Source of the DNA: an uncultured delta proteobacterium
GTDB lineage: Bacteria; Desulfobacterota; Binatia; UBA9968
DNA: 64,000 bases
Direction of reading: 5' to 3'
Assembly (NCBI GenBank): GCA_963847445.1
Contig: CAWJZV010000034.1
Coordinates: 353,393 to 417,392 of the forward strand
Notes under the pieces: model-generated
Databases searched by the model: none
Told to the model about the DNA's origin: nothing
Seen by the model: only the letters and a program-made list of their open reading frames with translations
Program-made: the position numbers and the translations under genes
Part shown: one piece after another, positions 23,037-44,393 of the stretch
Position numbering within the stretch: the first letter of the stretch is position 1
How the letters are laid out: each line of letters starts with the position of its first letter

Positions 23037-23056
23037 CGCAAAAATTGGGAACCAGC

Positions 23057-24757
23057 ATGGAAACACAAGTGACCCTGGCGGAGCGTCTGATCGAACGGCA
23101 AATGCTCTCCAGCGAAGAAATGGAGCGGGTGAGAAAGCTCCAGGAGGAGCAGCAAGCGCCGCTTAGCCGGCTGGTGGTTGAGCTCGGTTTTCTGTCCGAA
23201 GAAGATCTCCTGCCGGTGATGCGCGATCATTTCGAACTGCCGCTCATGTCGCTACGCGATGTCGCGAATACGCCGTTGCCCTTGGACCTACCGGCCAACA
23301 TCGGCGATTTTTTCAAGTTGGCGCGCATGGTGCCGGTGAAGATCGAGGGGCGCGACTTAGTCGTCGCCATCGCCGATCCCATGGAACTCTCGCGGCTGCA
23401 TGCGATTGAGTTGGCTACCGGTTTACGGGTCAAAGCGGTGCTCGCCAAGGAAAAAGAGATCGCCGCCCGTATCGAAGCGTTATACGGCGGCAGTTACACT
23501 GCCGATGGGACCACCGAGGAGTCCGCCCAAGGTTTTGACGGTATCGCGGAAGACGAAGATGTCGCCCATCTGCGCGACATGGCCTCGGAAGTACCGGTCA
23601 TCCGGCTGGTCAATCAGATGCTGGTCCGCGCCCTCGAAAGCCGGGCGTCGGATGTGCATATCGAGCCCTTCGAAAATCAACTCAAGGTGCGCTACCGCAT
23701 CGACGGCATTTTGCACGAAGTCGAGTCGCCGCCGCGCCAGTTGAAGGGCGCGGTGATTTCACGTTTAAAAATTCTCGCCCAGCTCAATATCGCCGAACGA
23801 CGCTTGCCGCAGGACGGCCGGATCAAAACCAGATTGGGCGGCAAGGATATCGATCTGCGTATCGCCACGGTGCCGACGCTCTACGGCGAAAGCGTGGTGA
23901 TCCGCTTGCTCGAGCGCGGGCAGATTTTTACCCAGTTGGAGACTATGGGATTCCCGCCGGTGCAACTGGCGCGTTTTAACGAGATGATCTTGAAGCCCCA
24001 TGGCATGATCTTGGTCACCGGGCCCACCGGCAGTGGTAAGACCACCACGCTTTACGGCGCGTTGCAGAAAATCAACGATCCGGGCAAAAAAATCATCACC
24101 ATCGAAGATCCTGTCGAGTATCAGTTGAGCGGTGTCAACCAGATCCACGTCAAGCCGCAAATCGGTTTGACCTTCGCCAACGGGCTACGCTCGATCGTGC
24201 GCCAGGACCCCGACGTGATCATGGTCGGCGAAATTCGCGATGCCGAGACCGCCGAGATCGCCGTGCAAGCGGCGCTTACCGGCCACTTGGTGTTTTCCAC
24301 GCTGCATACCAACGATGCCGCCGGCGCGATCTCGCGGCTTCTAGAGATGGGAGTGCAGGATTATCTGCTCTCGTCGTCGCTGCTGGGCGTTCTGGCGCAG
24401 CGTTTGGTGCGCCGCCTCTGCGCGGATTGCCGAAAAGAAGTACCGTTTACCGGACTGGAGGGCGTGGCGCCCGAAATGGCGCTGGCCAATGGCGAACCGT
24501 TACATACAATCTGGGAAGCGGCGGGCTGTGAAGCTTGCAGCGGCACGGGTTATTTGGGCCGTGTCGGCGTCTTCGAGCTGCTGCCGGTGACGGCGGATAT
24601 TTGTAAATTGATCAACCAAAAGGCCGACGCCAATGTCATCCGCAATCTCGCCGTTCAGCAGGGTATGCGCCTTCTCCGCGAAGACGCCTGGGATAAAGTT
24701 CGCCAGGGGATGACCACCTTGGCTGAGGTGGTGCGTGTGACCCGTGAAGAAGGTTAG
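23057..24757 (+). CDS. gspE: Type II secretion ATPase GspE
   Basis: ASDVHIEP, GPTGSGKTTT, LRSIVRQDPDVIMVGEIRD and a tetracysteine motif. Confidence 0.95.
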   Translation: METQVTLAERLIERQMLSSEEMERVRKLQEEQQAPLSRLVVELGFLSEEDLLPVMRDHFELPLMSLRDVANTPLPLDLPANIGDFFKLARMVPVKIEGRDLVVAIADPMELSRLHAIELATGLRVKAVLAKEKEIAARIEALYGGSYTADGTTEESAQGFDGIAEDEDVAHLRDMASEVPVIRLVNQMLVRALESRASDVHIEPFENQLKVRYRIDGILHEVESPPRQLKGAVISRLKILAQLNIAERRLPQDGRIKTRLGGKDIDLRIATVPTLYGESVVIRLLERGQIFTQLETMGFPPVQLARFNEMILKPHGMILVTGPTGSGKTTTLYGALQKINDPGKKIITIEDPVEYQLSGVNQIHVKPQIGLTFANGLRSIVRQDPDVIMVGEIRDAETAEIAVQAALTGHLVFSTLHTNDAAGAISRLLEMGVQDYLLSSSLLGVLAQRLVRRLCADCRKEVPFTGLEGVAPEMALANGEPLHTIWEAAGCEACSGTGYLGRVGVFELLPVTADICKLINQKADANVIRNLAVQQGMRLLREDAWDKVRQGMTTLAEVVRVTREEG

Positions 24758-24847
24758 TTCGCGGCAGTCCCATTGATCGGTAATGGCTGATTGCCGGTCA
24801 TGATATTTTTGTTCCTTACTCGTCTGATCATAACGTAAAAAATCGCC

Positions 24848-26068
24848 ATGGCGTTTTACCAATATCGGGCCGCCGACCAAGCTGGCAAAGTGGTTGAAGG
24901 CGTGATGGAAGCCGATGCCGAGCAGAGCGTGGTGTCGCGCCTGCGCGAGATGGGCTGTGTGCCGCTGCGCATCGCCATGCCGTCTGAACGCGCGGTCGGC
25001 GCGGTACGACAGCAGCGGCCGCTGTTCGAAAAACGCAAGGTCAGCCAGCAGCAGTTGCTGCAGTTCACCCGTGAGCTCGCCACCTTGCTCCACGCCGGGT
25101 TGCCGCTTGACCGCAGTTTATCGATCCTCGGCAATCTGTTCGAAGGCGGCGAATTTACCAAGGTCATGCGCTCCTTGGTCGAAGCGGTGCGCGCCGGCAA
25201 ATCCCTCGCGGTGTCGATGGGCGAACACCCGCAGATCTTTCCCCGCATTTACGTCAACATGATCCGCGCCGGCGAGGCCGGCGGCATCTTGGAAAGCGTC
25301 CTGCGCTATTTAACCGAATACTTGGAAAGCACCACCGCGCTTAAAGAAGAGATTAAATCGGCGTTAATCTACCCGATTATTTTAGCCACCGCGGCCGGCG
25401 CCTCGTTGATCGTCTTGTTTCTCTTCGTCATTCCAAAGTTCGCAGCGCTGTTCCATGACAACCGCAAAGCGATTCCCTGGATCACCAAAGTGGTCATCGA
25501 CTTTAGCCAGATGCTGTCCCAATACGGCTGGCTGGTATTGTTGGTGGTCGTTGCCGCGGTCGCCGGGGTGATTCTTTACGTGAAAAATCCCGAGGGTCGA
25601 AGCGAATGGGATCGTTTATGCTTGAAGGCTTGGCTGATTGGCGATTTGGTGCGAAAATTTGAAACCGCGCGTTTTTCCCGGACGTTATCCGCGTTGCTCC
25701 GCGGCGGCGTGCCGTTGCTCGAAGCCTTGGGCACGGTACAAGGCGTCGTCGGCAACCGGCTTTTGGCCCGGGCCATCGGCCAGGTGCAGGTGCGGGTGCG
25801 CGAGGGCAAGGGCATGGCGCGGCCGTTGAGCGAGAGCGGTTTATTCCCGATCTTGGCTCTGAACATGATCGCGGTCGGCGAGGAGTCGGGGAAACTGGAT
25901 GGCATGTTGACCGAGGTGGCGTCGTTCTACGATCAAGAGGTCCGACGATCGACGAAAAGATTAACTTCGTTGCTGGAACCGGTATTGATTTTGGGGATGG
26001 GACTGATCATCGCGGTGGTCGTCATCTCCATGTTGATGGCGATATTCAGCATCAATGAAATACAATGA
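24848..26068 (+). CDS. gspF: Type II secretion platform protein GspF
   Basis: FTRELATLLHAGLPL, AGEAGG and GEESGKLD. Confidence 0.94.
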   Translation: MAFYQYRAADQAGKVVEGVMEADAEQSVVSRLREMGCVPLRIAMPSERAVGAVRQQRPLFEKRKVSQQQLLQFTRELATLLHAGLPLDRSLSILGNLFEGGEFTKVMRSLVEAVRAGKSLAVSMGEHPQIFPRIYVNMIRAGEAGGILESVLRYLTEYLESTTALKEEIKSALIYPIILATAAGASLIVLFLFVIPKFAALFHDNRKAIPWITKVVIDFSQMLSQYGWLVLLVVVAAVAGVILYVKNPEGRSEWDRLCLKAWLIGDLVRKFETARFSRTLSALLRGGVPLLEALGTVQGVVGNRLLARAIGQVQVRVREGKGMARPLSESGLFPILALNMIAVGEESGKLDGMLTEVASFYDQEVRRSTKRLTSLLEPVLILGMGLIIAVVVISMLMAIFSINEIQ

Positions 26069-26502
26069 ACCGTCGTCTTAACCAAGCTATGAAGAACCAA
26101 GCCGGGTTTACCCTCGTCGAACTGATTGTCGTGGTCATCATTATCGGCCTATTGGCTGGGCTGGTGGTGCCGCAATTTATTAAACAGGAAGAAAAGGCCA
26201 CGGCCAAGGCGGCTAAGGCGCAGATCGAATTGTTCGGCACGGCGCTCGACACCTTTCGCCTCGACGTCGGGCGTTATCCAACCAGCCAGGAAGGTATGGC
26301 AGCCTTGATGCAGAAGCCCGGCGGGGTCGACCGCTGGGATGGTCCCTATCTCAGAAAAGATCTGCCGCCGGATCCTTGGGGCAAGCCCTATGTCTACAAG
26401 AGCCCGGGGGATCATGGCGTCTACGATATTATTTCCTATGGCGCCGACGGCGCCCCTGGGGGCGACGGCAATAACCGTGACATTACCAGCTGGGAAAGAT
26501 AA
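26065..26502 (+). CDS. gspG: Major pseudopilin GspG
   Basis: GFTLVELIVV, GRYPTSQEG, WDGPYL, DPWG and SYGADGAPGG. Confidence 0.96.
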   Translation: MNRRLNQAMKNQAGFTLVELIVVVIIIGLLAGLVVPQFIKQEEKATAKAAKAQIELFGTALDTFRLDVGRYPTSQEGMAALMQKPGGVDRWDGPYLRKDLPPDPWGKPYVYKSPGDHGVYDIISYGADGAPGGDGNNRDITSWER

Positions 26503-26944
26503 CCGGGGATTCTCGCTCCTTGAGCTCGTGCTGGTGCTGGTGGTCATGGGCATCTCCATGGCGATCGTCGTGCCCAATATCGGCCGGCGCATGCAGGAGC
26601 GTGAAGTGCGCAGTTCGGCGCTCGGCTTGGCCGCGGTGGCGCGGGAGCTGCGTAGCCGCGCGCTAGTCGACGGCATCGCCCAGCAGTTGATCGTCAGCAT
26701 GCCGCACAATACCTATCTGGTGCCAAAGGTCCGCGAGGTCCATCTACCCGAGGATGTGCGCATCGCGTCCATCGCAGGCGGCGAAGCGATGGAGCGCGAC
26801 ACCAAGCGATTTTATTTCTTTCCCAACGGCAGCAGCCTCGGCGGCGAGATCGTCATCGCCAGTAGTGCCAGTTCGATTTCCTATCTGATTCGTCTGGAAC
26901 CGCTCACCGGCAAGATCGAGGTCAGTCGTGGCGGTCAGTCGTGA
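26477..26944 (+). CDS. gspH: Minor pseudopilin GspH
   Basis: Prepilin motif RGFSLLELVLVL and FFPNGSSLGG; the probable GTG start overlaps the gspG end. Confidence 0.85.
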   Translation: MTLPAGKDNRGFSLLELVLVLVVMGISMAIVVPNIGRRMQEREVRSSALGLAAVARELRSRALVDGIAQQLIVSMPHNTYLVPKVREVHLPEDVRIASIAGGEAMERDTKRFYFFPNGSSLGGEIVIASSASSISYLIRLEPLTGKIEVSRGGQS

Positions 26945-27351
26945 GAACTTCCATGGGTCGCGGTAAAGACGGCTTTACATTGCTCGAAGTGCTCATCGCC
27001 ATGACCATCGTCGGTTTAGGCGTGGTGACTTTGCTGCAAATATTTTCCCTCGGCCTGCGTTTGGCGTCGCGCAGCAACGTGCAGACCGACGCCATCGCCC
27101 AAGGCGCGCGGGTCATGGACGAGTTGCTGGCCCGCCCCAATCTGCGCGACGGATCGGAGAACGGTACGGTGGCGCCGGCCACTCGCTGGCGCTCGCAGGT
27201 TCAAACTCAGCGCGATACCGCGCCGTCACTAAACTTGGGCAGCAACTGGGAGCTCAAAGAAGTCGCCGTCGAAATGACGGTGGCTGACGGTGAGAGAGAA
27301 CGCCGCGTGGAACTAAAGACGTTGCGGCTGGCGCGCAAGGGCAATCCATGA
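26941..27351 (+). CDS. gspI: Minor pseudopilin GspI
   Basis: GFTLLEVLIAMTI; position in operon. Confidence 0.82.
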   Translation: MRTSMGRGKDGFTLLEVLIAMTIVGLGVVTLLQIFSLGLRLASRSNVQTDAIAQGARVMDELLARPNLRDGSENGTVAPATRWRSQVQTQRDTAPSLNLGSNWELKEVAVEMTVADGERERRVELKTLRLARKGNP

Positions 27352-28013
27352 GTTCGAGACGGAACGCGACTCCTGACGATGGTAAGCCGCGACGCGGCTG
27401 CAATGGCGCCGCCGGCTTCACCTTGATCGAAGTAGTGTTGGCGATCACTATCTTTGCTCTCATGGGCGGGGTGCTTTATGGCGCTTTTTCCCTCGGCCAC
27501 ACGGCGGTGGAAAAATCCGCGGCGAGTTTTAATCGCAACCAAAAGACCCGTTCCATCGGCGACTTGCTGGCGACCTATATCCGATCCGCTTACCCCTACC
27601 GCAAGTCGATTCAAGAGCAAGCGATTTTTTTCGACGGCGGGCACGAAAGTGTGACTTTCGTATCGGCCTATTCCCACGCCATGGGCGGCCGCGGCATGGC
27701 CAAGATCGCTATAGTAAAGGACGAGGCTGACAACGGCCGCGCGCTGGTACGCCTGGCGGAGACTGCGCCGGTTCGGGTCGGCGACGATGCCGGTGACGGC
27801 GGGCAACGCCATAGCTTGGTGATTCTCGAAGGCATCCGCGATTTCCAGCTCGCTTATCTCGATGCCGAGGGGGAAAAGGAAAACTGGGAAGAGCGCTGGG
27901 ACGGCAATGAGCGGCGCCGCCTGCCGCGCGCTCTGCGCATGACCTTTATCGACGCCGAGGGCAAAGAGGTGCGCTGGGTATTCCCCTTCATGTTGGCGGT
28001 GCTGTCCCAATGA
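27348..28013 (+). CDS. gspJ: Minor pseudopilin GspJ
   Basis: GFTLIEVVLAITI and W..RWD...LPRALR. Confidence 0.85.
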   Translation: MSSRRNATPDDGKPRRGCNGAAGFTLIEVVLAITIFALMGGVLYGAFSLGHTAVEKSAASFNRNQKTRSIGDLLATYIRSAYPYRKSIQEQAIFFDGGHESVTFVSAYSHAMGGRGMAKIAIVKDEADNGRALVRLAETAPVRVGDDAGDGGQRHSLVILEGIRDFQLAYLDAEGEKENWEERWDGNERRRLPRALRMTFIDAEGKEVRWVFPFMLAVLSQ

Positions 28014-29026
28014 AGCCGGTCATCGCAATTAGCGCCAATCCATTGCTCGGCAACCAACGCGGCGTGGCGCTGATCGTGGTTTTGTGGATGTTTATTTTTC
28101 TCTTCGTCGTCGCTTTCGACTTTAGCGCCTCGGTGCGTGAAGAAGCGGAGGCGACCCATCGTTTCAGCGATGAGACCCAAGGTTATTACCTTGCCGTAGC
28201 AGGTTTTGAGCGCGGCTTGTACGATTTCATCCATCAGGCCAGCGGCGGCAATCGGCAGGCCGATCCTGCGAAGGTCGATTTGTTTGACGGCAGTTGGCGC
28301 GAGGAGAAGCTTGGCAGCGGCGGGTTTCGTGTGCGGCTGGTCGACGAGGGCGGTAAGATCAACCTCAATCGCGTCAACGAACAGGTTTTACGCCGGGTAT
28401 TCACCAATCTCGGGGCGGACGGCTCGGTGGTGGATATTCTTGTCGATTCGATTATGGACTGGCGCGATCCCGACGAGCTGCACCGCACCAACGGCGCCGA
28501 AAGCGATTATTATGGGTTACTGTCACCGGCCTATTCGGCGAAGAACGGTCCCCTCGATAGCGTCGAGGATCTCTTGTGGATTCGCGGTATGACGCCAGCG
28601 CTCTATTATGGCTCTGCGGACGACAGCGATGCACGGTCGGAGCGCTCGCCGCGGGTCGGTTTGCGCGAGGTCTTCACCATCGACAGTCCCATCGACCGGG
28701 TCAACCTGCGTACCGCGACGGCGCAGGTGATTCACGCCATGACCGGTATTCCGATGGAGAAATGCCGCAGCTTCGTCGAGGAACGCAAACGTTTGTCGGA
28801 AAAAACCTTGACCGATTTGCTGCCCCTCTTGGGTATTGGATCGGGTGACCCGGTGTTGCAGTCGTTTATTTTTACCAACCCATCGGTGGTCGCCGTCGAC
28901 GCCGAAGGCCGGCCAACCGATGCGCGCGCGGCGCGCCGGGTTAAAGGGGTGGTCCGGCTCGGCGGCGCCCAAGGCTTCGAGATGCTCCGTTGGCTCGATC
29001 GGGAAATTGGACTATCGCAACCTTGA
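28010..29026 (+). CDS. gspK: Minor pseudopilin GspK
   Basis: QRGVALIVVLW, DEGGKINLN, DWRDPD, GAESDYY and VNLRTA. Confidence 0.92.
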   Translation: MKPVIAISANPLLGNQRGVALIVVLWMFIFLFVVAFDFSASVREEAEATHRFSDETQGYYLAVAGFERGLYDFIHQASGGNRQADPAKVDLFDGSWREEKLGSGGFRVRLVDEGGKINLNRVNEQVLRRVFTNLGADGSVVDILVDSIMDWRDPDELHRTNGAESDYYGLLSPAYSAKNGPLDSVEDLLWIRGMTPALYYGSADDSDARSERSPRVGLREVFTIDSPIDRVNLRTATAQVIHAMTGIPMEKCRSFVEERKRLSEKTLTDLLPLLGIGSGDPVLQSFIFTNPSVVAVDAEGRPTDARAARRVKGVVRLGGAQGFEMLRWLDREIGLSQP

Positions 29027-29076
29027 GCTTTAATGTAAAATGGGTTCGTTAACATCATTTTGAACCGCGAATACAC

Positions 29077-30663
29077 ATGGCTATAGGGCAGCGCTTACAA
29101 GATCTTTCGCGCGCCGACTTTCTCAGAAGCGTCGGGCTTTACGTCATGCAGGACCGTCTGGTGATGGTGCGCCTGCGTAAGAGCTTGCTCAACGTAGCGC
29201 TGCTCGACCAGCAGGACCGAGAGTTGCCGCACAGCGACACGCGGCCGGCGATCGCCGATATCACCGGCTGGGTTGCCGAAGACGTTAAGGAGATCGCACT
29301 TAAGGCCGAGAACGATTCGCGCGAGCGCAGTCTGCGCCAGGCGATGGTTTCTCTATTGCCCCATTTTAATGCCGGGCGCGACGCGGTTTATCTGTGTATT
29401 CCGCAAGACCAGGTGATCATGCAGCAGATCTTCCTGCCGCTGGCGGCGCAGGATACCATCGAGCAAGTTTTGCAGTACGAGATCGAGCGGCAGATGCCCT
29501 TTCGCCGCGATGAAATCTATTACGACTATCTCGCCACCGGCAAAAAAGGCGAGAGGTTGAGCCTTTACGTCATTGCCGTGCAGAAAAAGATCGTTGACGG
29601 CCTGGTGAGTTTGCTGGAGTCCTTCGGCATCAAGCCCGCCGGCGTCGAGCCCGACGTCACGGCGCTGCTCAATTACGCGCTTTATGCCACTGGCCCCAAT
29701 AACTCCCGTACGGCGATTTTAGCGGCGAGCGAGCATAGCTGGGACCTGCTCGGGGTCGAGTCCAAGGCGACGAATTGGAGCGCTTCGCAGCAATTCTTGT
29801 TCGCACACCGCATGCCCCATTCAGAATGGGCCCAGGGTGCGGGCCGAGAGTTGCTGCTACAGAATCTCGCCGATGTCGACAAGTGCTACCGCTGGGGTAA
29901 TCTCGGCGACATGACCGGGCTGCCGGCGGAAAAATTCGCTGCCGCCGAGGAGCTGCAAGGCTTGGACGGGCACCGCTTCCGCGGCCTAAAATCGCCCCTC
30001 CCTGAGGCGGCACTGCCCGCTGTTGGCGCCGCGCTGCGCGGGATTCGTGAAGCCGCGGTGATCGGCAATTTTCTGCGTCATGAAAACCCCGAACCGGCGG
30101 GTGGTAATTCGCTGTCCATGCTCAATGCCGTCCTTGGTGGGCTGTTAGCGCTCGCGCTGGTCGCCTGGGGGCTCAGTTATCCGATCAAGGATGAGATGCG
30201 CCTGCGTCAGTTGCAGCGCGAGAACCAGAAGTTCGAGGCGGCCATCGAAGCCCTGCGCCGCGAAGAGAATCAGTTACAGCAACTGAGCAAAGAGGTCGGC
30301 ACTTTGGCCGAACTGCAGGGTCGGCGCGGCGAGGTACTCAAAATCCTCGACGAACTGTCGAAGGTAGTGCCCAACAACGCTCATCTTTCCAATCTGCGTT
30401 ACCGGGCGGGTGTCTTAGAGGTTCAGGGCAACGCGGAAAATGCCTCCGCGTTGATTCCGTTGTTGGAGCGCTCACCGGTGTTCGAGAATGTCGCGTTCAA
30501 TGCGCCGTCGAACCGTGGCCGGGACAACCGCGAAACTTTTTCGTTGAAGGCCGAAGTGGAAAAGCTTAAAGCGGCCGCCAGCGAGCCGCCAGCGCAGGCT
30601 CCCAAAGAAGCTCTTAAAGAGGTTCCGAAAGTAGCACCCAAAGATAGTAAAGCGAAATCATGA
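29077..30663 (+). CDS. gspL: GspL/PilMN-like protein
   Basis: Cytoplasmic domain (LPLAA...YEIERQMPF), one TM helix, and a PilN-like periplasmic domain (LDELSKVVP...GNA...LERSPVFENV). Confidence 0.8.
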   Translation: MAIGQRLQDLSRADFLRSVGLYVMQDRLVMVRLRKSLLNVALLDQQDRELPHSDTRPAIADITGWVAEDVKEIALKAENDSRERSLRQAMVSLLPHFNAGRDAVYLCIPQDQVIMQQIFLPLAAQDTIEQVLQYEIERQMPFRRDEIYYDYLATGKKGERLSLYVIAVQKKIVDGLVSLLESFGIKPAGVEPDVTALLNYALYATGPNNSRTAILAASEHSWDLLGVESKATNWSASQQFLFAHRMPHSEWAQGAGRELLLQNLADVDKCYRWGNLGDMTGLPAEKFAAAEELQGLDGHRFRGLKSPLPEAALPAVGAALRGIREAAVIGNFLRHENPEPAGGNSLSMLNAVLGGLLALALVAWGLSYPIKDEMRLRQLQRENQKFEAAIEALRREENQLQQLSKEVGTLAELQGRRGEVLKILDELSKVVPNNAHLSNLRYRAGVLEVQGNAENASALIPLLERSPVFENVAFNAPSNRGRDNRETFSLKAEVEKLKAAASEPPAQAPKEALKEVPKVAPKDSKAKS

Positions 30664-31328
30664 AGCAGTTTTGGCAAAGGCTGTCGCAGCGCGAACGGGG
30701 GCTGGTTTTTTTGACCGGTGCGATCGTGTTGTTCTTTGTCGGCAAGGTGGCGATTGCCACGCCGCTGCTTGAGCGCCGGGCCACGACTAAGGGCCAACTC
30801 GAAAGCCAGCCGCAATTACTGCAAAAAAACCTGCGTTACTTGAGCCAGAAAGATTCGCTACTGGCGGCACTGGCTGCGGCACGCAATCAGATCAAAAGCA
30901 TCGAACCGGCGCTGTTGACGGGGGATACCCCCTCGGTTACCGCATCAGATCTCCAGGAGACGGTGCAGTCGCTGGCGACCCGCGAGGGCACTCAAGTCAT
31001 CACCACCCGCGTACTTAATCCCGAGCCGAGCGGCTCATTTTCCAAAATCGCCATCCAAATGGAGATCGGTGGCCAGGTTCAACAACTGGCCAGCTTGATA
31101 CGCGGTATCGAAAGCGCGCCAAAACTCTTGGTCATCGACGAGATCAACGTCCGTTCTCTCTTCCGCCCGGTCGGCTTCCCCCAAGTACCTGGGGCACAAC
31201 CGGCGGCCCAACAAAATCTTAGAGTCAGCCTCACGGTTGTCGGCTTTGCCCGGGCTCAGCCGGCGCCCGCGGCGAAGCCGGGAGCGCCGTCGAGCCCAGC
31301 GAAAGCAGCGCCGGATAAACCTGTCTAG
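30660..31328 (+). CDS. gspM: GspM-like protein
   Basis: WQRLSQRERGLV followed by a TM helix; IESAPKLLVIDEINV. Confidence 0.8.
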   Translation: MKQFWQRLSQRERGLVFLTGAIVLFFVGKVAIATPLLERRATTKGQLESQPQLLQKNLRYLSQKDSLLAALAAARNQIKSIEPALLTGDTPSVTASDLQETVQSLATREGTQVITTRVLNPEPSGSFSKIAIQMEIGGQVQQLASLIRGIESAPKLLVIDEINVRSLFRPVGFPQVPGAQPAAQQNLRVSLTVVGFARAQPAPAAKPGAPSSPAKAAPDKPV

Positions 31329-31591
31329 GTTGCGCTCGATCGGCAACGAATTTTGTCGCAAGACTCACTATCGTTGGTCGACTGCGTCAGGACTAGATCG
31401 CGGTCATTAGACGCTAAGCATACGGTTAGCGTGAAAATTTGGCTAATTCCTGGCTTGATCGGTACTAATTTGGAATTTGAAGTATTAATTCTGAGAACTA
31501 CATTGTACACTTTAGGCTATTTTCGATCTTGGCGGGCAACTTGGTTGATTTGCCTAACTGATATTCCTAGGGATTCTGGAGGAAGAGCGAC

Positions 31592-32296
31592 ATTCTTACT
31601 CGATCCGCACTCTTAAGCATTCTTATTACGGTGGCCATCGGTTTGGTTGGATGGACGACTTATCGCTCTTGGCGTGCTGGGCCTTGGGATATTCCCGGAC
31701 CTATGGCGCAAAGGCCGGCGGTGGTTAGCACGGAACAGCAGATTTTGCTGACGCCGCGGCCGCCGATCGGTACCGAAGCGATCGTCACCAAGAACCTTTT
31801 CGATCCTGAAAGGGGAGCTGGTGCGTCGCGCGATGCGGAGGAAAATTCCCGAGCCGTGCAGCGTGTGCGCGGTATGATTCTAGTGGGCACGGTGATCATC
31901 GGTAACAACCGCGTGGCGATTTTACAGGATAGCGCGAGCCCGGCGCCTGGCCAGCCGATTGCCGGACAGCGTCCACCCGGCCAGCCGATTCCGGGCCAGC
32001 GTCCGCCGGGCCAAGCCATGTCCACATTGCGTTTAAAAGTCGGCGATAATGTCGAAGGATTTAGGCTCACGGAGATCGCCGACCAACGGGTGGTTTTTGC
32101 CCGCGACGCGACTCGGGTGGAAGTGTTGCTGGATTACTTTCGTAAGGTTGATAACGTTGCGCCTCGACCCGCTGCTGCGCCGGGGCAGATTCAGGCGCCG
32201 CCAACCGGCAACCCCGTGCCGGTGCCACGGGTATTGCCAAACCTGCCAAGACGGGGGCGGATACCGGTTCCCGGCAGTGGCAGCCCCGAGTCGTGA
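31592..32296 (+). CDS. GspC-like accessory protein
   Basis: N-terminal TM anchor, NLFDPER and an HR-domain pattern (LVGTVIIG...AIL...LKVGDNVEGFRLTEI...V); directly upstream of the secretin. Start uncertain (ATT 31592 or GTG 31631). Confidence 0.7.
   Translation: MLTRSALLSILITVAIGLVGWTTYRSWRAGPWDIPGPMAQRPAVVSTEQQILLTPRPPIGTEAIVTKNLFDPERGAGASRDAEENSRAVQRVRGMILVGTVIIGNNRVAILQDSASPAPGQPIAGQRPPGQPIPGQRPPGQAMSTLRLKVGDNVEGFRLTEIADQRVVFARDATRVEVLLDYFRKVDNVAPRPAAAPGQIQAPPTGNPVPVPRVLPNLPRRGRIPVPGSGSPES
31946..32014 (+). repeat. 30-nt coding tandem repeat (PGQPIxGQRP)x2.3
   Basis: CCTGGCCAGCCGATTGCCGGACAGCGTCCA / CCCGGCCAGCCGATTCCGGGCCAGCGTCCG / CCGGGCCAA. Confidence 0.85.
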
Positions 32297-32315
32297 GTGG
32301 AGAAGGAGCGACCCC

Positions 32316-33663
32316 ATGTCTTTAAAGAGCGTTTCACGCATGGCCGTACTGGTATTCGCAACGACGGTCACCGGTCCGGCAGGGTCACAGCAACAGCCTG
32401 TGGCTCCAACCCCAGCGCCGAGTCCCAATCAGCCACGTCCAAACGCCGCAGCGCCGCAGATTCCTGGAGATCCAAATGTTCCGCCGGCGGCGCGGCCACC
32501 GGTTTTGCCTCAGCGCATACCCACGCCAGTCCAAGCGCCCGGCCAGTTGAGTCCTCCAGGGGGCGTGCCAACCTCTCAGCCGACCCAGGTGAAACCATCT
32601 CCGCAAGTAATACCGGGGCAACCCATACCGGCCGATCCGAACGCGGCCGCACAGCCGCCTGTGCCGGCGGTTCCCGCACCTTCAGCGCGGCGCGGTAGCC
32701 CGGGACCGTCTTTTCCCGCCGGCGGCATGGTTTCTCTTAATTTCAACCGCGCCGATCTAGTCGAGATTATCCACATCATCGCCCAGCAACTGCGGCTGAC
32801 CTACACGATCGATCCTGAGGTCAAAGGGACGGTGACGATCAATAGCGCGGAGCCGCTGCGTTCCGAGGATCTGATGCCGATTTTCCACCAACTACTGCGC
32901 ATGAATGGCGCGGTGGCAGTGCGAACCGGCAATCTTTATCACATCACGCCGATCAAGGACGGCAAAGGGATGGCACGCCCGGTGGCGCAAGGGCGCGAGG
33001 ATAGTTTCGCCTTGCAACTGATCCCCGTACGGTTTTTTACCGTCGCCGAAATGAAACGGGTGCTGACGCCATTTTTGCAACCGGGCGCGGAGATAATCGA
33101 TAACCCGCGCGGCAATTTTTTGATCGTCATGGACACGCCGCTGAATATTCAGCGGTTAACCGAGATCGTCGATCTCATCGACGTCCAGGTTTTCGCCGGC
33201 ACGCGCATGGAAATTTATCAGCCGAAAATCGCCAGCGCCGAAGAACTATCCCAAGAGATGACCAAAGTCATGCAGTCGTTCTCGGCCTCCTCGCCCCAGA
33301 TTGAAAACTTTGCCGCGCAGTTCATCCCGCTGCCAAGAATCAACCAATTGCTGGTCATCGCCCATAGCGAAGCGGCCTGGACCTACGCCAAACGGTGGCT
33401 CGACCGCATCGACGTGGTTGCGGAAGGGCCGGGTCGCAGGATATTTATCTACCCCGTGGAAAACGGTAAGGCGACCGAGCTAGCCGACGTGCTCAATCAG
33501 GCGCTCGGTCAGCCTGTTACAGGTTCACGGAGTAGCCCGCAGACTTTGCAGAGCATCCATCGCTCGTCTTCAAGCAGCTCCAGCCAATCCGGAGGATTCG
33601 GACAGTCAAGTGGCTCATGGACAGTTTGGTTCGGGTGGTTCACAGCAGGGGCAAATGCGATGA
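32316..33663 (+). CDS. gspD: Secretin GspD N-terminal part (signal peptide, Pro-rich linker, N0-N1-N2, start of N3)
   Basis: SD AAGGAG plus ATG; N0 motifs SLNFNRADL and IDPEVKGTVTI; N1/N2 repeats; IFIYPVENGKATELADVL. The probable stop TGA at 33661-33663 requires one indel at ~33618. Confidence 0.75.
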
Positions 33664-35465
33664 AAAAAATTACGGCCGTATTGCTAGTTTTAGTCCTCGT
33701 AAGCTTTTCTGGTGCGCAGGCACAAAATCGCCCTGGGGCGTTCGCAGCGCCAGCTGCGCCCGGTCAAGTCCCAACCCCGGCGGCGGCAGCCCCCCAGGTC
33801 ACCACGCCATCACCGGGACTAGGTGTGCCGCCGAGGCCGGCCGGTCAAGCTCAACCTGGCCAGCAGCAGCAACAACAACAGGAGCAATTGCGTATCGTCG
33901 CTGATCCGGCGACCAACTCACTGATTATTTACGGCACCGTCCAGGAGTATCAGAACGTCAAAAACATTCTGAAAGAATTGGATGCGATTCCACGGCAGGT
34001 GTTGATCGAAGCCATGATATTGCAGGTTGATCTACAGGGATACCGAAGATTTCGGCGTTGATTATGAGCTCTTTCAAGTCGCGGCAGTACATCGTTTTCG
34101 GCCATACCTTTGGTTCGAACGCGGTGATCGGTCTTTAGGGGCGCCTTCCTACCGCGCCATTCTTGAGGGGTGGCGGTTTACGCGCAATCGTAGGCGGGGA
34201 GAACACGGTTCATGCCTTGATCACGCGCTGTTGCTCAAAGATTCACGGATAAAACTGCTTTCATCGCCGAGCGTGATTGCCAGCGGACAATCGCCCGGCG
34301 CGCATTCAGGTCGGTAGCGAGGAACCCATCCCGACAGGAACCGTCAGGCGGCAACTGGTTCGCTCAGCAATCTCCTCACAGTCCACGACCATTCAGTACC
34401 GTAATACGGGCCGAATCTTGACCATCATACCTCAGGTCAATTCACAGGGCTTAGTCAATTTGCAGATAAAGGCCGAGGTAAGTCAAGAGGTGAGAGCGTT
34501 CGTTCGGTGACGTGCAACAGGCGGACACGGCAACTACTTTCCCAACTTTGAACACTCAAGACGCGGAAACCACGGCGGTCGTTCAGGATGGCGAGACGTT
34601 AGTTATCGGCGGCCTAATCGGAGAGCGAAAAAGCAAGGCTCGAGTCGGCGATTCCGTATCTGATGGATATCCCGGTGATCGGCCGATTTTTTGGAACGAC
34701 CAGCGATGATACCGACTCGCACCGAACTAATCATGCTGATCACGCCGCGAGGTCATTCGCAATCGTAGTGACTCTCGCGTTGTTACGGCAGAATTCAAAG
34801 CGGGTTTAGAGAAAGTCAGGGCCGAGCTCGAACGCTTTGAGAAGGATCGCGCCAGATTATTGCCGCCGCGGCCACTGCCGCCGTTGCCGGACCCGAACCA
34901 GTATTATCAGTATGATCAGCAGCAGCCGGCGCCGGCCACTCCACCGGCTGGACCGCGAGCTGCGTTGCCGGCGTTTATTGGGAATGTCACTTTACTGTCC
35001 AACGATCCACTCACTGGCCGGATGATGCCGCCGATGGCTGTGCCGCAAGCGTCGGAGCCGGTATGGCTGGCGCAGAATTACCAGATAGCCGCACCGGCGA
35101 ACACCCAACCAAAGCAAAGCGCCGCGCTGCTGCCACCAGCGCAAGTACTGTCATTTATTCAAGCTGCGCCGGTAGCCGCTCCGGCGGTTCCAGTTAAACT
35201 GGTGCAGCAGCAAACGCCCACGGCCGGCAGACGGACATGGACCGTGCAAGTCGCGGCAATAGCCGAGAGTGGTCCGGCCGAATCGTTAGCGCAGAAACTC
35301 CGCCGGTTGGGTTACAATGCTTATGTCAGAGTCACCTACGGGAACAGCAAGATTTGGCATCGGGTGCGCGTTGGTCAAGTGGAAAACCAAAAAGACGCCG
35401 CTGAATTGCGTAGAACCCTGGCCAGGCAAAAAGAATACAAAGACGCCTATATCGCTGTTTACTAG
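33660..35465 (+). CDS. gspD: Secretin GspD C-terminal part (own signal peptide, rest of N3, secretin core, SPOR domain); several frameshifts at 34030-34750
   Basis: MKKITAVLLVLVLVSFSGAQA, IVADPATNSLII, RQVLIEAMI, ARIQVGSEEPI, QYRNTG, VQDGETLVIGGLI, DIPVIGRFF and RTELIMLITP, then VIR continuing in frame into a SPOR domain. Confidence 0.75.
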
Positions 35466-35485
35466 ATTTCCGGTTTTCTGTGATC

Positions 35486-35524
35486 AGCCGCCCATGAGAC
35501 GAGCTCATCGGGCGGCTTTTTTTT
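35486..35524 (+). terminator. Rho-independent terminator after gspD
   Basis: AGCCGCCC-ATGAG-acgag-CTCAT-c-GGGCGGCT followed by a T-run. Confidence 0.9.
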
Positions 35525-35862
35525 GTCCGAGTGTTGGGGCGGTTGTCGATGAACTCATGTAATCCGGAAGGAACGGTCATTTTCCGTGATTTTGTTCGCG
35601 CAATGGGCTTGGTTATGATTTAGCTAAATTCTAAAACATGGATCTGTCGGCTTTGAATATTCCGGTGGTGTAGAAACCCAGGCCGCCATGAAGGTAGGCA
35701 ACATTGATCCAAGGGGTGAAAGAGGGTATGTTGACACGATTTCCGACAAAGTTAGGGCGATTGGCGGAGGGGTTCTAGAGGCGATCTTACACTCGTACCC
35801 CAACCTAAATAATTCCCGCCTGACGGGTGCTGCAAAAACTAACTGCAAAGGATGAATCAAGC

Positions 35863-36783
35863 GTGGATCCGAAACAGCTGACCATCGAGCAAGTTCAAGA
35901 AATTCTTCTCAAAGAAAAGTACGTCTGCGACCGTTCCCTTGCGACTGTGGTTTATTTATCGCTGGTAATGGGTAAACCCCTGCTTCTCGAAGGCGAGGCG
36001 GGTGTCGGTAAGACTGAAATCGCCAAAGTGCTGTCCAAGGTCTTGGGCGCGCGGCTAATCCGCTTGCAGTGCTACGAAGGGCTCGACGCCAGCACCGCGC
36101 TCTACGAGTGGAACTATCCCAAGCAGATGCTCCACATCAAGCTCGAAGAGATCGAGCGCGGCGATAAGAAGCAGGTCGAGACCGAGATTTTCACCCAGGA
36201 CTATCTGGTCAAGCGGCCGCTGCTCGATGCGATTCAAAGCGAGGATGCTACGCCGCCGGTGCTGTTGATCGACGAGATCGACCGCGCCGATATGGAGTTC
36301 GAGGCGTTTCTGCTCGAAGTGTTGTCCGATTTTCAGATCACCATTCCCGAGTTGGGTACGGTGACGGCGAAGCATCGGCCCTATGTGTTTCTGACTTCCA
36401 ACCGCACGCGGGAAATCCACGACGCCTTGAAACGGCGCTGCTTGTACCACTGGATCGAGTACCCGACCTTCGACAAGGAATACGAGATCATCACCACCAA
36501 GTTTCCCGAAGTCGAAACCAAGATGGCGCAGCAAATCTGCGCCTTCATGCAAAAGGTGCGCGAGATGAATTTCTACAAGCGCCCCGGCGTCGCCGAAACC
36601 TTGGATTGGGCGTCGGCGCTGATCGCGCTCAACCGTAAACAGTTGGATGACAAGTCGGTGATCGAGACCATGGGTTGCGTGTTCAAGTACCGCGAAGATT
36701 TGAGCCACCTGCGCGAGCAGGTGGAAAACCGCCAGTTCAGTCTCGACGCGCTGCTGCGCACGTCGCCGGAGCTAGTGAGTTAA
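35863..36783 (+). CDS. coxD: MoxR-family AAA+ ATPase, CoxD-like
   Basis: LLEGEAGVGKTE, IRLQCYEGLD, LLIDEIDRAD, TSNRTREIHDALKRRC and PGVAETLDW. Confidence 0.9.
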   Translation: MDPKQLTIEQVQEILLKEKYVCDRSLATVVYLSLVMGKPLLLEGEAGVGKTEIAKVLSKVLGARLIRLQCYEGLDASTALYEWNYPKQMLHIKLEEIERGDKKQVETEIFTQDYLVKRPLLDAIQSEDATPPVLLIDEIDRADMEFEAFLLEVLSDFQITIPELGTVTAKHRPYVFLTSNRTREIHDALKRRCLYHWIEYPTFDKEYEIITTKFPEVETKMAQQICAFMQKVREMNFYKRPGVAETLDWASALIALNRKQLDDKSVIETMGCVFKYREDLSHLREQVENRQFSLDALLRTSPELVS

Positions 36784-36789
36784 AACTCG

Positions 36790-38004
36790 ATGGATATCAC
36801 TCCCGAAACAGTCGCGGAGGCGGTCAACAAAGTCGCCTCGGTGCGCGGCAAGGGCACCTTGCCGAACATGATGGCGTTTGGCCGCGCCTTGAAACATCTC
36901 GGTGTCAAGGTCAGCTTGAGCCAGCTGCTCGATGCCTCGCGTTCGGCGCAATGGGTCGACATCGCCGCGCGCGGCGATTTTCGTGCGCTGTTGCGCGCTA
37001 ACTTGATCTCGCAAAAAGAAGACTTTCCGGTCTTCGACATGCTCTTCGATTGTTTCTGGCGCGAGCAGAGTTACGAGCGCGTGCCGATGGAGACCATGGA
37101 CATTCAAGGCACGCCCACCGACTCCAACGCCCCGGAGGGCGGCGATGAGGAGGGCGGCGTCGAAGAGGCCGCCTCCGAGGCGATTGCCAATGAGAATCTG
37201 CCGCTGGAAAACCTTGACGAGTTCGCGGTGCCGACCTATAGCGCCCAGGAGCTGATGAACCGCAAGGATTTCAGCGAAATGGGCACCGAGGAAAGCCGCG
37301 CCATCGCCAGAGCGATACTGCTGATCGCCACCAAGATCGCCACCCAGATCAGCCGGCGCAAGAAAATCGGCCGCAAAGGTCCGGTGATCGATCCGCGCGC
37401 GACCCTGCGCCGCAGCATGAAATACGGCGGCGAAGTGATCGAGATGGCGCACCGCAAGCGGCGCATCAAGAAAACCAAAGTCGTGCTGCTATGCGATGTC
37501 AGCGGCTCGATGGATTGTTACAGCCGGTTTCTGATTCAGTTCATGTACGGCCTGCAAAACGAACTGTGGGGCGTCGAGACTTTCGTTTTTAGCACATCGC
37601 TCAGCCGAATTACCCACCTGATCCGCACCAAGAATATCGTCGATGCTTTGGACAAGATTTCCGGCACTATTCTTGGCTGGTCCGGCGGCACCAACATCGG
37701 CCGCTCGCTGCATACCTTCAACCGCAATTTCGCGCCAAGCATGGTGACCCACCGCACGGTGGTGGTGATCATCAGCGACGGCTGGGACCGCGGCGACGTC
37801 AGCTTGTTGGAAAAAGAAATGCGGGACATCAAACGGCGCGCCAAGAAAATCATCTGGCTCAATCCTTTGCTAGCGAGCGAGAACTACGAACCGCTCTGTA
37901 AAGGCATGCAAGCGGCGCTGCCGTATTTGGATCTGTTTTTGTCGGTGCACAATGTCAATAGTTTGGTTGCGTTAGGGCGGACACTCGAGAAAATGGTGGC
38001 GTGA
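36790..38004 (+). CDS. coxE: VWA domain protein, CoxE-like
   Basis: MIDAS motif LCDVSGSM, WSGGTNIG, IISDGWDRGD and IWLNPL. Confidence 0.9.
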   Translation: MDITPETVAEAVNKVASVRGKGTLPNMMAFGRALKHLGVKVSLSQLLDASRSAQWVDIAARGDFRALLRANLISQKEDFPVFDMLFDCFWREQSYERVPMETMDIQGTPTDSNAPEGGDEEGGVEEAASEAIANENLPLENLDEFAVPTYSAQELMNRKDFSEMGTEESRAIARAILLIATKIATQISRRKKIGRKGPVIDPRATLRRSMKYGGEVIEMAHRKRRIKKTKVVLLCDVSGSMDCYSRFLIQFMYGLQNELWGVETFVFSTSLSRITHLIRTKNIVDALDKISGTILGWSGGTNIGRSLHTFNRNFAPSMVTHRTVVVIISDGWDRGDVSLLEKEMRDIKRRAKKIIWLNPLLASENYEPLCKGMQAALPYLDLFLSVHNVNSLVALGRTLEKMVA

Positions 38005-41855: not shown

Positions 41856-43099
41856 ATGAAAAGACTGCTGGCATATTCGCATGACACTTATGGCTTGGGG
41901 AACATCCGGCGCATGCTGGCGGTCTGCAATCACCTGGTCGATGCGATCCCCGATTTGTCGATCTTGCTGATTTCCGGATCGCCGATGGTACATAGTTTTC
42001 GTATCAAGAGCGGTATCGATTACATCAAGCTGCCATGCCTGTCGCGCACCAAGGCCGACGGCTATGCGGCAAAGAGCATCGGTGTCGATCTCAAAGAAAC
42101 CGTCGATCTCCGTTCCGACTTGATCTTGCAGACCGCCAGCCGGTTTAAACCGGATGTGCTCCTGGTCGATAAAAAACCTTACGGCGTCGAGCATGAGTTG
42201 CGTGACACGCTCAATTACCTACACACCAATCTGCCAGACACAAAGCTGGCATTGTTGCTGCGCGACGTGCTCGACAGCGCCGAGGCGACCACCGCGGTGT
42301 GGAAGAAAAACCGCTATTACGAAGCGGTTCGCAAGTTTTACGACCTGGCGCTAGTGGTCGGTTTGCAAGAGGTATTCGATCTCAGCAAAGAGTATCGCTT
42401 TCCCTGTTCGACTAAAGACAAAGTACGATTCTGTGGTTACATCGGCCAGCACGACAAGCCGCAGCACCGAACCGAGCTGCGCCGTGAATTCAATCTTAAA
42501 ACCGAAAAGCTCGTGTTGGTCACCGTTGGTGGCGGCGAGGATGGTTACTGATCTCTTAAAGAACTACCTTTGCGGCCTAAACCCGTGCGGGAGCGCGCAA
42601 GCATTCGACAGCCTGATCGTTTGCGGTCCCGAGATGGCACCGCAGCGGCGTGCCGATATTGGGCAAATCGCCGCGGGCCGGGCTCATGTCCAAGTACGCG
42701 AGTTTGTTAATGACATGCTCGGCTACATAGACGCCGCCGATGTGGTGGTTTCCATGGGCGGTTACAACACGATTTGCGAGCTCCTATCGTTGCACAAACA
42801 TGCGGTGATCGTGCCCCGCGCCAAACCGGTGGAAGAGCAATGGATTCGCGCTGAACGCATGGCCAACCTCGGTTTGTTTAGAGTCATTCATCCCGATTTT
42901 GTTACGCCGGCTAACTTGCGCGGTGCCGTTGCCGAGCTCATCGGTGTCAATGGCAAGCAGTCGCTGCCGCCGTCGTTGGATCTCGCTGCGTTGCCGCATA
43001 TTGCCGGCCACATCGCGCGCCTCTTGAGCGACGCGTCCGGCACGACTACAGGTGAGGGCACCGCTGCGCGAGATGGCACGAGAACGGTACTTCGCATGA
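41856..43099 (+). CDS. Predicted glycosyltransferase (COG4671-like, GT-B fold); frameshift at ~42550
   Basis: YSHDTYGLGNIRR, VDKKPYG, LRDVLD and VTVGGGEDG, then VSMGGYNTICE and EQWIRAE in the next frame. Confidence 0.8.
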
Positions 43100-44393
43100 A
43101 CGCGCCGAGAGCGGGGAAGCGCATTGCGTATCTAGTCAAGACGTTTCCGAAGATCTCCGAGACGTTTATCCTGCGCGAAATCCTGGCGTTGCAAGATCAA
43201 GACGTCGATCTACAGATTTACGCGCTGCGACACCCCGAAGAGAGCAAAAGCCACTCGATCGATAGCGAAGTACGGGCGCCGGTCAGCTATCTTCCTCGGT
43301 CATTTGCCGAGAAAGCAGCGAGCATGCTGTGGGCGCAATTGTTATTGCTGCTTTGCCGTCCGGCTGCCTATCTGCACGCGATGGTTTTTCTCGTGGGCCG
43401 GGCGGAATCGGGGCGCTATCAAATTTTCTTCAGGCCACCTATCTGGCGCTGGCGTTGCTGAGGGCCAAGGTCGCGCATCTGCACGCTCACTTCATCAATG
43501 AGCCCGCCGGGGTCGCCGAACTCGTGCATTTGTTAACCGGTATTCCCTACAGTGTCACCGCCCATGCCAAGACATCTATCTGTCGCCCAGCGGAGCTGGT
43601 TCGTAAAATGGCCAAGGCCAAATTCATTGTCACTTGTAACGATTACAATCGGCGCTATCTCACACCAGATGGGCGCCGATGTGCCGATATCAAGATCTAT
43701 CACGGTCTCGATGCACGGCTTTTTCAGGCCGATGCCGCGGTTTATCCAAGCGCTGAGGCGTCACTAGTGCTGAGCGTCGGTAGACTGCGTCCGAAGAAGG
43801 GTTTCCATTGTTTAGTCGACGCCTGCGGTTTGCTGAAGATCGGCGGCCACGAATTCCGCTGCATGATCGCCGGCTACGGACCTTTGCGTGGGGAGCTGGA
43901 GACGCGCATCGCCAAGCTCGGTCTGGAGGATACGGTTTCGCTAACCGATATGCTCACGCAAGGGGAAGTGATCGCGCTGTATAAACAGGCATCGCTATTC
44001 GTTTTACCATGCCGGATCACCGCCGACGGCGATCGCGATGGCATTCCCAATGTTCTAGCCGAGGCGATGGCGATGGAACTGCCGGTGGTGTCGACGAATA
44101 TTGCCGGCATTCCGGAGTTAGTCGAACATAATCGCACTGGCATACTCGTCCGGCCGGAAGATCCTGTGGAGCTTGCGGCGGCGATCGCCCGACTGCTCGA
44201 TCAGCCGCAGCTGCGCGAAGAGTTGGGCAAGGCCGGGCGCGAAAGAGTTTGCCAAATGTTCGCCGCGGAGAAACGCGGCGCAGCTAAATCCTGGTTCGTC
44301 GGCGCGCCGCCGGCTGCGGTCGACCCCATGGCCGCGCTGCCGGCGGGCGGAAACGCCAACCACGGAATTATCGATCTGATGTCTGGAGTCTAA
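43096..44393 (+). CDS. Glycosyltransferase family 4 (WcaL-like), frameshifted
   Basis: AYLVKTFPKISETFILREI, HLHAHF, SVGRLRPKKG and DRDGIPNVLAEAMAM. Confidence 0.85.

Follow-up and report, generated by a model that had tools for sequence, protein, structure and literature searches.

We analyzed a stretch of 64,000 nucleotides, hereafter called the window, from a 7.19-Mb metagenome-assembled genome (48 contigs) of an uncultured delta proteobacterium. We focused on its gspD locus, which encodes the secretin of a type II secretion system (T2SS). Secretins are treated as single-chain building blocks of T2SSs, type III secretion systems (T3SSs), type IV pili, and filamentous phage export. The gspD frame as sequenced starts at ATG 32316, runs through WTVWFGWFTAGANA, and ends at a stop codon at 34059-34061. 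Within this frame, ATG 33660 begins MKKITAVLLVLVLVSFSGAQA, which is followed by QNRPGAF, and this hydrophobic stretch sits between IFIYPVENGKATELADVL and LRIVADPATNSLII. The + 1 frame ahead of 33660 reads GQFGSGGSQQGQMR and then terminates at TGA 33661-33663, overlapping the ATG.

When T 33618 is omitted, the locus reads as two genes on the plus strand. In gene 1 (32316-33663), a signal peptide and a P/Q-rich linker precede the domains N0, N1, and N2; these are followed by the first beta-alpha unit of N3 (IFIYPVENGKATELADVLNQALG) and by a Ser/Gly-rich tail with the final residues QQGQMR up to TGA 33661-33663. At an ATGA junction (33660-33663, plus strand), the ATG of gene 2 shares bases with the TGA of gene 1, and a Shine-Dalgarno-like AAGG/AGGG motif lies 5' of the junction. 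The Sec-type signal peptide of gene 2 (33660-33722), a feature kept in relatives with varying letters, precedes a Pro/Ala/Gln-rich loop (33723-33887). The loop forms the N-terminus of the mature product (QNRPGAFAAPAAPGQV...QQQQEQ) and is the equivalent of ...PLGAYAAVPAPGQV... in unsplit relatives. The second part of N3 follows (LRIVADPATNSLIIYGTVQEYQNVKNILKELD; 33888-33983; Secretin_N model positions 29-66 of 69). It aligns from residue 285 of 5wq7, the E. coli GspD structure. Gene 2 continues on the same strand with the secretin core (PF00263; 34030-34760) and with a linker and C-terminal SPOR domain (34860-35465; PF05036, E value 7.6e-15), whose frame is intact over the last 201 codons. The core is broken in the window, as described below.

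The position of the cut was determined from domain models and structure alignment. Pfam assigns residues 377-557 of the run-through protein, including the hydrophobic stretch, to a single Secretin_N domain (model positions 2-65 of 69). In the alignment of an unsplit relative with 5wq7, RRIFIYPVENGKATELADVLSQ matched up to chain residue 264 and QEQLRIVPDPATNSLII matched from residue 285. Because one Pfam domain and the 5wq7 alignment flank the loop, the cut lies inside N3, after the first beta-alpha unit. N0 (PF21305) scored 59.5 bits in the run-through protein and 60.2 bits in gene 1 of the split relative G004, and three stretches of the run-through protein matched Secretin_N (PF03958, 93.9 bits). 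N3 is divided between the genes, with Secretin_N model positions 30-65 of 69 on gene 2 of G004. The core PF00263 scored 153.4 bits in G004 gene 2, whereas the window gave fragments only (39.3 and 33.7 bits). Each half missed the TIGR02517 cut-off of 351.35 bits (gene 1, 185.6 bits, positions 1-298; gene 2, 248.2 bits, positions 286-600), and the counterpart of gene 1 in G022 likewise covers model positions 1-298 of 600. An unsplit relative of the same genus, G017, scored 450.6 bits over positions 1-597 of 600, above the cut-off. The split secretin belongs to a T2SS operon, in which it is accompanied by gspE, F, G, minor pseudopilin genes, K, L, and M.

The SPOR domain scored 55.4 bits in the window, against a cut-off of 21, and 51.6 bits in G004. 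According to Pfam, T2SS secretins of the window's family carry a C-terminal linker of ~150 residues and a SPOR domain in split and unsplit forms alike. A literature search combining secretin, SPOR, and type II secretion, at the level of titles and listings, found no paper evidently on such a fusion.

DNA alignment with split-type relatives revealed exactly one additional T in the window at the junction, at 33618 (plus strand). This T was missing in six of six split-type relatives aligned there, five of which were covered by the full-gene comparison. It was also missing in all five public contigs covering the position, which are 95-99% alike (three from run X1 and two from run X3) and are one base shorter at 33617/33618. 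No contig of runs X5 and X9 covered 33614-33621, and these runs were hence uninformative on T 33618; the RNA runs X19 and X20 contained only 0.05-0.06 of the sampled words. Thus, the window's frame reads through the signal peptide because of an extra, frame-fusing T that is private to it. The G+C content of the signal-peptide region (0.49-0.51) is below that of the flanking sequence. A search of the window's genome for a signal-peptide donor, using 81 bases as the query, returned only the locus itself and chance matches (E > 1). A promoter and terminator scan of 31200-35900 gave counts no greater than in shuffled sequence.

We then compared the junction in 12 split relatives (G022, G004, G002, G014, G009, G021, G067, G064, G065, G063, G072, and G073). 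The two genes were adjacent in 12 of 12. Gene 1 stopped in the loop in all 11 genomes whose locus includes its end, the TAG stop of G065 being seen in one of two locus readings only. Gene 2 opened with a basic residue and then a hydrophobic stretch in every genome. The 4-base ATGA overlap was found at eight junctions, gaps of 2, 27, and 113 bases at three, and an in-frame TAG with a short spacer at one; such diversity is as expected of two cistrons and not of a recoding signal. Gene 1 of G022, G004, G002, G014, and G009 ended in QQGQMR, QQGLTR, QQGQTR, or GQGQIR, followed by TGA with the overlapping ATG of gene 2. The N-termini of gene 2 in these five genomes were MKKITAVVLILLGVCFSGAQA, MKNFTAICLVVIAGGWSGVQA, MKKYFAVWLAVIVAGLSGAQT, MKKFIALWLILIVANFSGAQA, and MKNVTAGLLFLIVASLSNAQA, and its frame was open across the whole core in all five. 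The complete gene 2 of G004 (L023:10499-12283, minus strand) encodes 595 amino acids (aa) with a signal peptide, Secretin_N positions 30-65 of 69, Secretin (153 bits), and SPOR.

The Ser/Gly tail of gene 1 (33560-33640 in the window, and the same place in L004 and L006) is a short imperfect repeat of GQSSGSGQF units. Its copy number varies, being 26-27 bases longer in G004 and 14 longer in G014, and the public contigs of run X5 break there.

To describe the spread of the two forms, we searched 90 genomes of the family and obtained a match in 76, whose states were counted from the search table and the loci read. The signal-peptide-bearing type was found in 14 of the 76 genomes: 11 of the window's genus (including the window and the noisy G003), one of genus g16, and two of genus g18. 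A single frame passing through the loop without a hydrophobic stretch was found in 50, including the unpublished G005, G059, G062, and G076. The other 12 were left unscored, since contig ends or masked bases fell in the loop (G011, G023, G061, G069, G053, and G020) or the matches were partial or paralogous (G074, G079, G081, G085, G086, and G091). Two other families of the same order had both pieces in one frame in 12 of 12 matching genomes.

Among the best 120 public-protein matches to gene 1, 104 were 415-460 aa long with an M start. All 120 contained N0 and Secretin_N, and PF00263 was present in addition in three, each longer than 700 aa. The gene-1-like proteins terminate within the Ser/Gly-rich loop. 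Among the best 120 matches to gene 2, 49 were 560-620 aa long, one of which was a fragment of an unsplit protein. The remaining 48 all had a hydrophobic signal at the start (mean hydropathy over 11 residues 2.19-3.72, the scored segment starting 1-7 residues after M). One or two K/R residues were scored ahead of it in 47, and in the remaining protein K precedes the M chosen by the script. AQAQN-like text follows the hydrophobic stretch, and AQA, VQA, AQT, ANA, and ASA ahead of Q/N were spotted by eye in gene 2 N-termini. Public annotation names gene 1 'secretin N-terminal domain-containing protein [Candidatus Binatia bacterium]' and gene 2 'SPOR domain-containing protein', 'FtsN', 'DedD', or 'CpaC'. 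With a two-gene form annotated in this way, T2SS detection that expects one GspD may miss or miscall these systems.

These comparisons bear on a preliminary description of the locus, made from the letters of the window alone. It had placed a Sec-type signal peptide at ATG 33660, between the first beta-alpha unit and the rest of N3. The peptide is there, its character is kept in 48 of 48 gene-2-like proteins, and both flanks of the loop align to 5wq7 within one Secretin_N domain. The proposed 1-nt shift at ~33618 proved exact, and the ATGA overlap is shared by 8 of 12 split relatives. Of the stop, start, and signal peptide, whose conservation it had suggested checking, the start and signal peptide were seen in 12 related genomes and the stop in the 11 whose locus includes the end of gene 1. 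Its central claim, that two proteins cut in the N3 loop are separately translated and separately exported, is now strongly supported by comparison (the 12 genomes, the 48 proteins, selection, and the contigs lacking the T). The broken core at 34030-34760 and the C-terminal SPOR domain are features that it did not mention.

Selection was evaluated in the 10 pairs formed by five split genomes, using the ratio of nonsynonymous to synonymous substitution rates (dN/dS). From N0 to the first part of N3, dN/dS was 0.007-0.043 at dS 0.6-1.85 in all pairs. For the second part of N3 and the core, it was 0.03-0.09 in six pairs, dS being saturated in the other four. These values indicate that strong purifying selection acts on both halves and that neither is decaying. 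The 21-codon signal peptide gave 0.19-0.63 in nine pairs and 1.5 in one, suggesting that its sequence drifts while its character is kept.

The window's own copy differs from those of its relatives. Compared with five of them, it has 18 private indels between 33618 and 34750, 16 of which are not multiples of three. Seventeen lie in the core (34030-34760), where 15 change the frame, and past 34030 the core switches among all three frames. Approximately 30 private substitutions are confined to 34100-34550; per 150 bases, there are 0-1 in the SPOR part and 0-3 across the SPOR part and gene 1. The X1 and X3 contigs also lack several of the core indels. Where sites distinguish two allele types, the window matches now one, now the other, and now neither, but only within 34000-34800. 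Of the 89 frame-changing indels relative to G004 across the 64 kb, 22 fall in 34-35 kb; other, smaller clusters appear to coincide with gaps between long open reading frames (ORFs), and agreement with G004 is good elsewhere. Frame errors in the same gene also occur in the few-contig assemblies G003, G066, and G068 and in the public protein P0081. P0081 (751 aa, from a 98-kb contig) is a run-through ORF with an internal signal peptide and several frame changes, mirroring the fault of the window. The window's genome has other secretin matches, namely an intact one of 682 aa on contig 7, a short ORF of 204 aa on contig 45, and one cut by the contig end on contig 48. General garbling of secretin genes in this genome was ruled out by these matches. 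A real gene boundary can thus be masked when a frame runs through it in a metagenome assembly with long contigs.

We consider that the locus is probably a T2SS secretin naturally split into two adjacent, translationally coupled genes, as judged from sequence comparison. Gene 1 encodes a protein of ~440-455 aa in which a separate signal peptide is followed by the domains N0 to N2, the initial beta-alpha unit of N3, and a Ser/Gly-rich tail. Gene 2, starting on the ATGA, encodes a protein of ~580-600 aa with a signal peptide of the signal peptidase I type, a Pro/Ala-rich tail, the beta-beta-alpha rest of N3, the core, a long linker, and SPOR. Both proteins would cross the inner membrane via Sec. 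The gene 2 product would form the outer-membrane channel, tethered to peptidoglycan by SPOR, and the gene 1 product would dock beneath it by completing N3 in trans. The secretin would then consist of two proteins, and its GspC-binding N0 ring would be formed by a different chain from the channel.

We used complex prediction to examine the contact between the halves. Residues 66-365 of gene 2 and 270-400 of gene 1 were submitted in one job with an alignment for each chain. The predicted complex scored 0.36, against 0.00 for the best of three controls, and no interface was returned. The runs agreed in at least 83% of contacts, and the pLDDT of the partner was at least 65. The mark applied passes 58 of 80 solved complexes and 2 of 110 mismatched pairs, and scores up to 0.60 are weak passes. 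Because the chains are halves of one domain with solved relatives, the pass may reflect likeness to known secretin structures. The reassembly of N3 in trans, which the preliminary description had proposed, was favored slightly by the score and received no modeled interface. The heteromeric secretin that it drew from this is not without precedent, as discussed at the end. A docking ring that could be exchanged, also raised there, would be a further possibility.

Other explanations of the locus were weighed against the split. If the window were correct as sequenced, a single polypeptide would carry an internal hydrophobic segment in its N3 loop. The frame is indeed open from 32316 to 34061, and P0081 reads through similarly. 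However, the fusing T is missing in all aligned relatives and near-identical public contigs, the same reading stops at 34061 and leaves the core in pieces, and P0081 shifts frame several times relative to its near relative G067. A hydrophobic stretch was found in none of the loops of 50 unsplit proteins of at least 850 aa (maximum 11-residue hydropathy 1.25), and from general knowledge of Sec export, an internal segment of this kind would tend to retain the core at the inner membrane. We regard a single polypeptide as very improbable. The same holds for a programmed frameshift or stop read-through that joins both frames into a full-length secretin. In several relatives, the gene 2 frame is open for some codons 5' of its ATG, but the junctions vary among a 4-base overlap in frame − 1, an in-frame TAA/TAG with a spacer, a 2-base gap, and a 113-base gap. 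Moreover, G009 has a stop 10 codons upstream in the gene 2 frame, and the features of the signal peptide are kept despite its varying sequence, a constancy that a loop segment would not need. Recoding is thus hardly to be expected here.

A further explanation accepts two real genes and denies that their products form one secretin: gene 2 alone could be an N-truncated channel, with gene 1 having another role, or one of the two could be in the process of being lost. The weak complex score is compatible with this, and secretins with few N domains exist (the short chains 5w68 and 9k8v). On the other side are the strong purifying selection on both halves, the adjacency of the genes in 12 of 12 genomes, and the retention by each of half of one highly conserved domain (invariant columns in alignments A1 and A2). 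In addition, N0, which binds GspC in known systems (PMC8134430), is on gene 1 only. Separate roles are therefore unlikely in our judgment. On another question, there is a minor but real chance that the window's copy is a true decaying pseudogene rather than an assembly fault. Its 18 private indels and ~30 private substitutions in 1.1 kb of an otherwise clean assembly would suit a dead gene, as would the presence of an intact secretin on contig 7. Yet the damage ends sharply at a flanking gene 1 and SPOR part with few private substitutions, which is unexpected in a dead gene, and every other gsp gene is open. The near-identical contigs of two runs lack the T and several core indels, the limited allele alternation fits a mixed consensus, and this gene has frame errors in other few-contig assemblies (G003, G066, G068, and P0081). 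Because of these sharp edges, open gsp genes, clean contigs, allele alternation, and similar errors elsewhere, the damaged core most likely reflects a poor local consensus of the assembly. Decay of the copy is the less likely reading.

Several points weigh against the split secretin as we describe it. Signal peptidase cleavage of the gene 2 product at AQA|QN is a prediction read by eye. Binding of the two products through N3 is suggested only faintly by the complex prediction. A technical cause for one bad kilobase in an otherwise clean assembly is assumed, and the window's organism, with a frame running through and a core broken, may have no working copy. The core tree, built from the second part of N3 and the core (45 split, 58 unsplit, and 2 outgroup rows), also showed split and unsplit forms intermixed with at least four state changes. 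The same minimum of four changes was obtained with 58 thinned rows in IQ-TREE. One clade of split forms was rejected on this tree, at a cost of 137 log-likelihood units and with p = 7.5e-05 in the approximately unbiased (AU) test; the split group was named beforehand, and the test was run after the tree was seen. Therefore, the history is not one clean fission.

Around the cut, the text is common to every split form, namely the signal peptide and then R-x-G-A-F-A-A. We therefore tentatively favor a history with one fission, which may have been followed by several re-fusions via deletion of the signal peptide. A stronger version of the split secretin would be an obligate two-protein channel in which both chains contribute half-domains to the N3 ring. 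Such an architecture would have been acquired and lost several times, since one in-frame deletion of the signal peptide can re-fuse the genes. We put this forward tentatively, as a possibility that falls well short of probable. If it holds, the N0-N2 vestibule would be a separately dosed and separately assembled module, and the locus would offer a natural split-protein system for dissecting the nucleation of secretin rings.

The remaining T2SS operon lies 5' of the secretin on the plus strand (23045-31328). It comprises gspE, F, G, three more pseudopilin genes (one matching GspJ), K, an L/PilN-like gene, and M, all of which are open. The GspL-like gene at 29077-30663 (528 aa) also has a PilN domain at its C-terminus and looks like a fused L/PilN-type protein. 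A possible GspC-like gene (31631-32296, plus strand) is located directly 5' of the secretin. It matched NCBIfam T2SS_C_SYNERG weakly (E value 1.9e-4; 20.9 bits against a cut-off of 200) and had no Pfam match. An LptD homologue (786 aa, 20155-22515) is found just 5' of the gsp operon. Directly 3' of the secretin, 35827-38004 holds a MadB-family AAA ATPase (284.7 bits, under the cut-off of 475) and a second protein, which matches MadC-type VWA weakly. The region 41856-44393, which had no match in the compared stretch of G004, contains three long plus-strand ORFs of 231, 342, and 354 aa that overlap in different frames. Either a further frame problem or genuine gene overlap could explain them.

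As judged from the genomes and public proteins compared, a T2SS secretin cut inside N3 is widespread in one uncultured lineage of soil and sediment bacteria. Searches of open-access papers (main texts) and bioRxiv turned up no description of a bacterial T2SS secretin divided in this way or otherwise split. Single-chain GspD (5wq7 and 5wq8) shares the domain order N0, N1, N2, N3, and secretin core with the split form, which differs in having two genes instead of one and a second signal peptide. The N3 loop is ~100 residues here compared to ~20 in 5wq7, and the C-terminal linker and SPOR domain are unlike canonical single-chain GspD. The conserved cut inside N3, together with the second signal peptide, suggests that separate synthesis and export, and probably separate assembly, of vestibule and gate are possible. 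The split secretin would then be a natural test of which contacts stabilize the N3 ring and in what order the rings assemble.

Rhizobial T3SSs and the T3SS-2 of Pseudomonas syringae have a split secretin, RhcC1 (NolW)/RhcC2, the significance of which is unknown according to the authors (PMC3574062 and PMC3973906). As in the window, N-terminal domains and core are on two gene products. The rhizobial genes belong to a T3SS cluster, in contrast to the gsp neighbors here, and lie apart in different units (~12 kb in NGR234), whereas the genes of the split T2SS secretin mostly overlap. We examined RhcC2 and NolW of NGR234 at L054:6670-8097 (minus strand) and L053:44373-45077 (plasmid pNGR234a). Each begins with a hydrophobic stretch. 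NolW contains N0 and a whole Secretin_N (model positions 1-63 of 69), and RhcC2 is laid out like Tad-type secretins (pilus-N, BON, and Secretin) and adjoins a CpaD-family gene. The cut in NGR234 is thus between domains, unlike that of the window's relatives, which passes through one Secretin_N domain. Given the Tad-type layout of RhcC2 and the whole Secretin_N of NolW, the rhizobial case may be less a simple fission than a pairing of two different proteins.

The T2SS-derived system in mitochondria of some protists provides another comparison. Its GspD is split into several polypeptides (GspD, GspDL, and GspDN1-3), GspD and GspDN1 interact in a yeast two-hybrid assay, and GspDN2 and GspDN3 match halves of a Secretin_N domain, as described by Horvathova et al. 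(2021, PMC8134430). The mitochondrial proteins are eukaryotic, highly diverged, and without N0 and S-domain, and the authors could not map them to N1-N3 (PMC8134430). They are not adjacent bacterial cistrons with Sec signals, and the likeness is drawn from published descriptions rather than from sequences. The locus described here would be a bacterial parallel to the split GspD of this mitochondrial T2SS remnant. If the two-protein channel is obligate, free-living bacteria would have in it an equivalent of the half-domain proteins GspDN2 and GspDN3.

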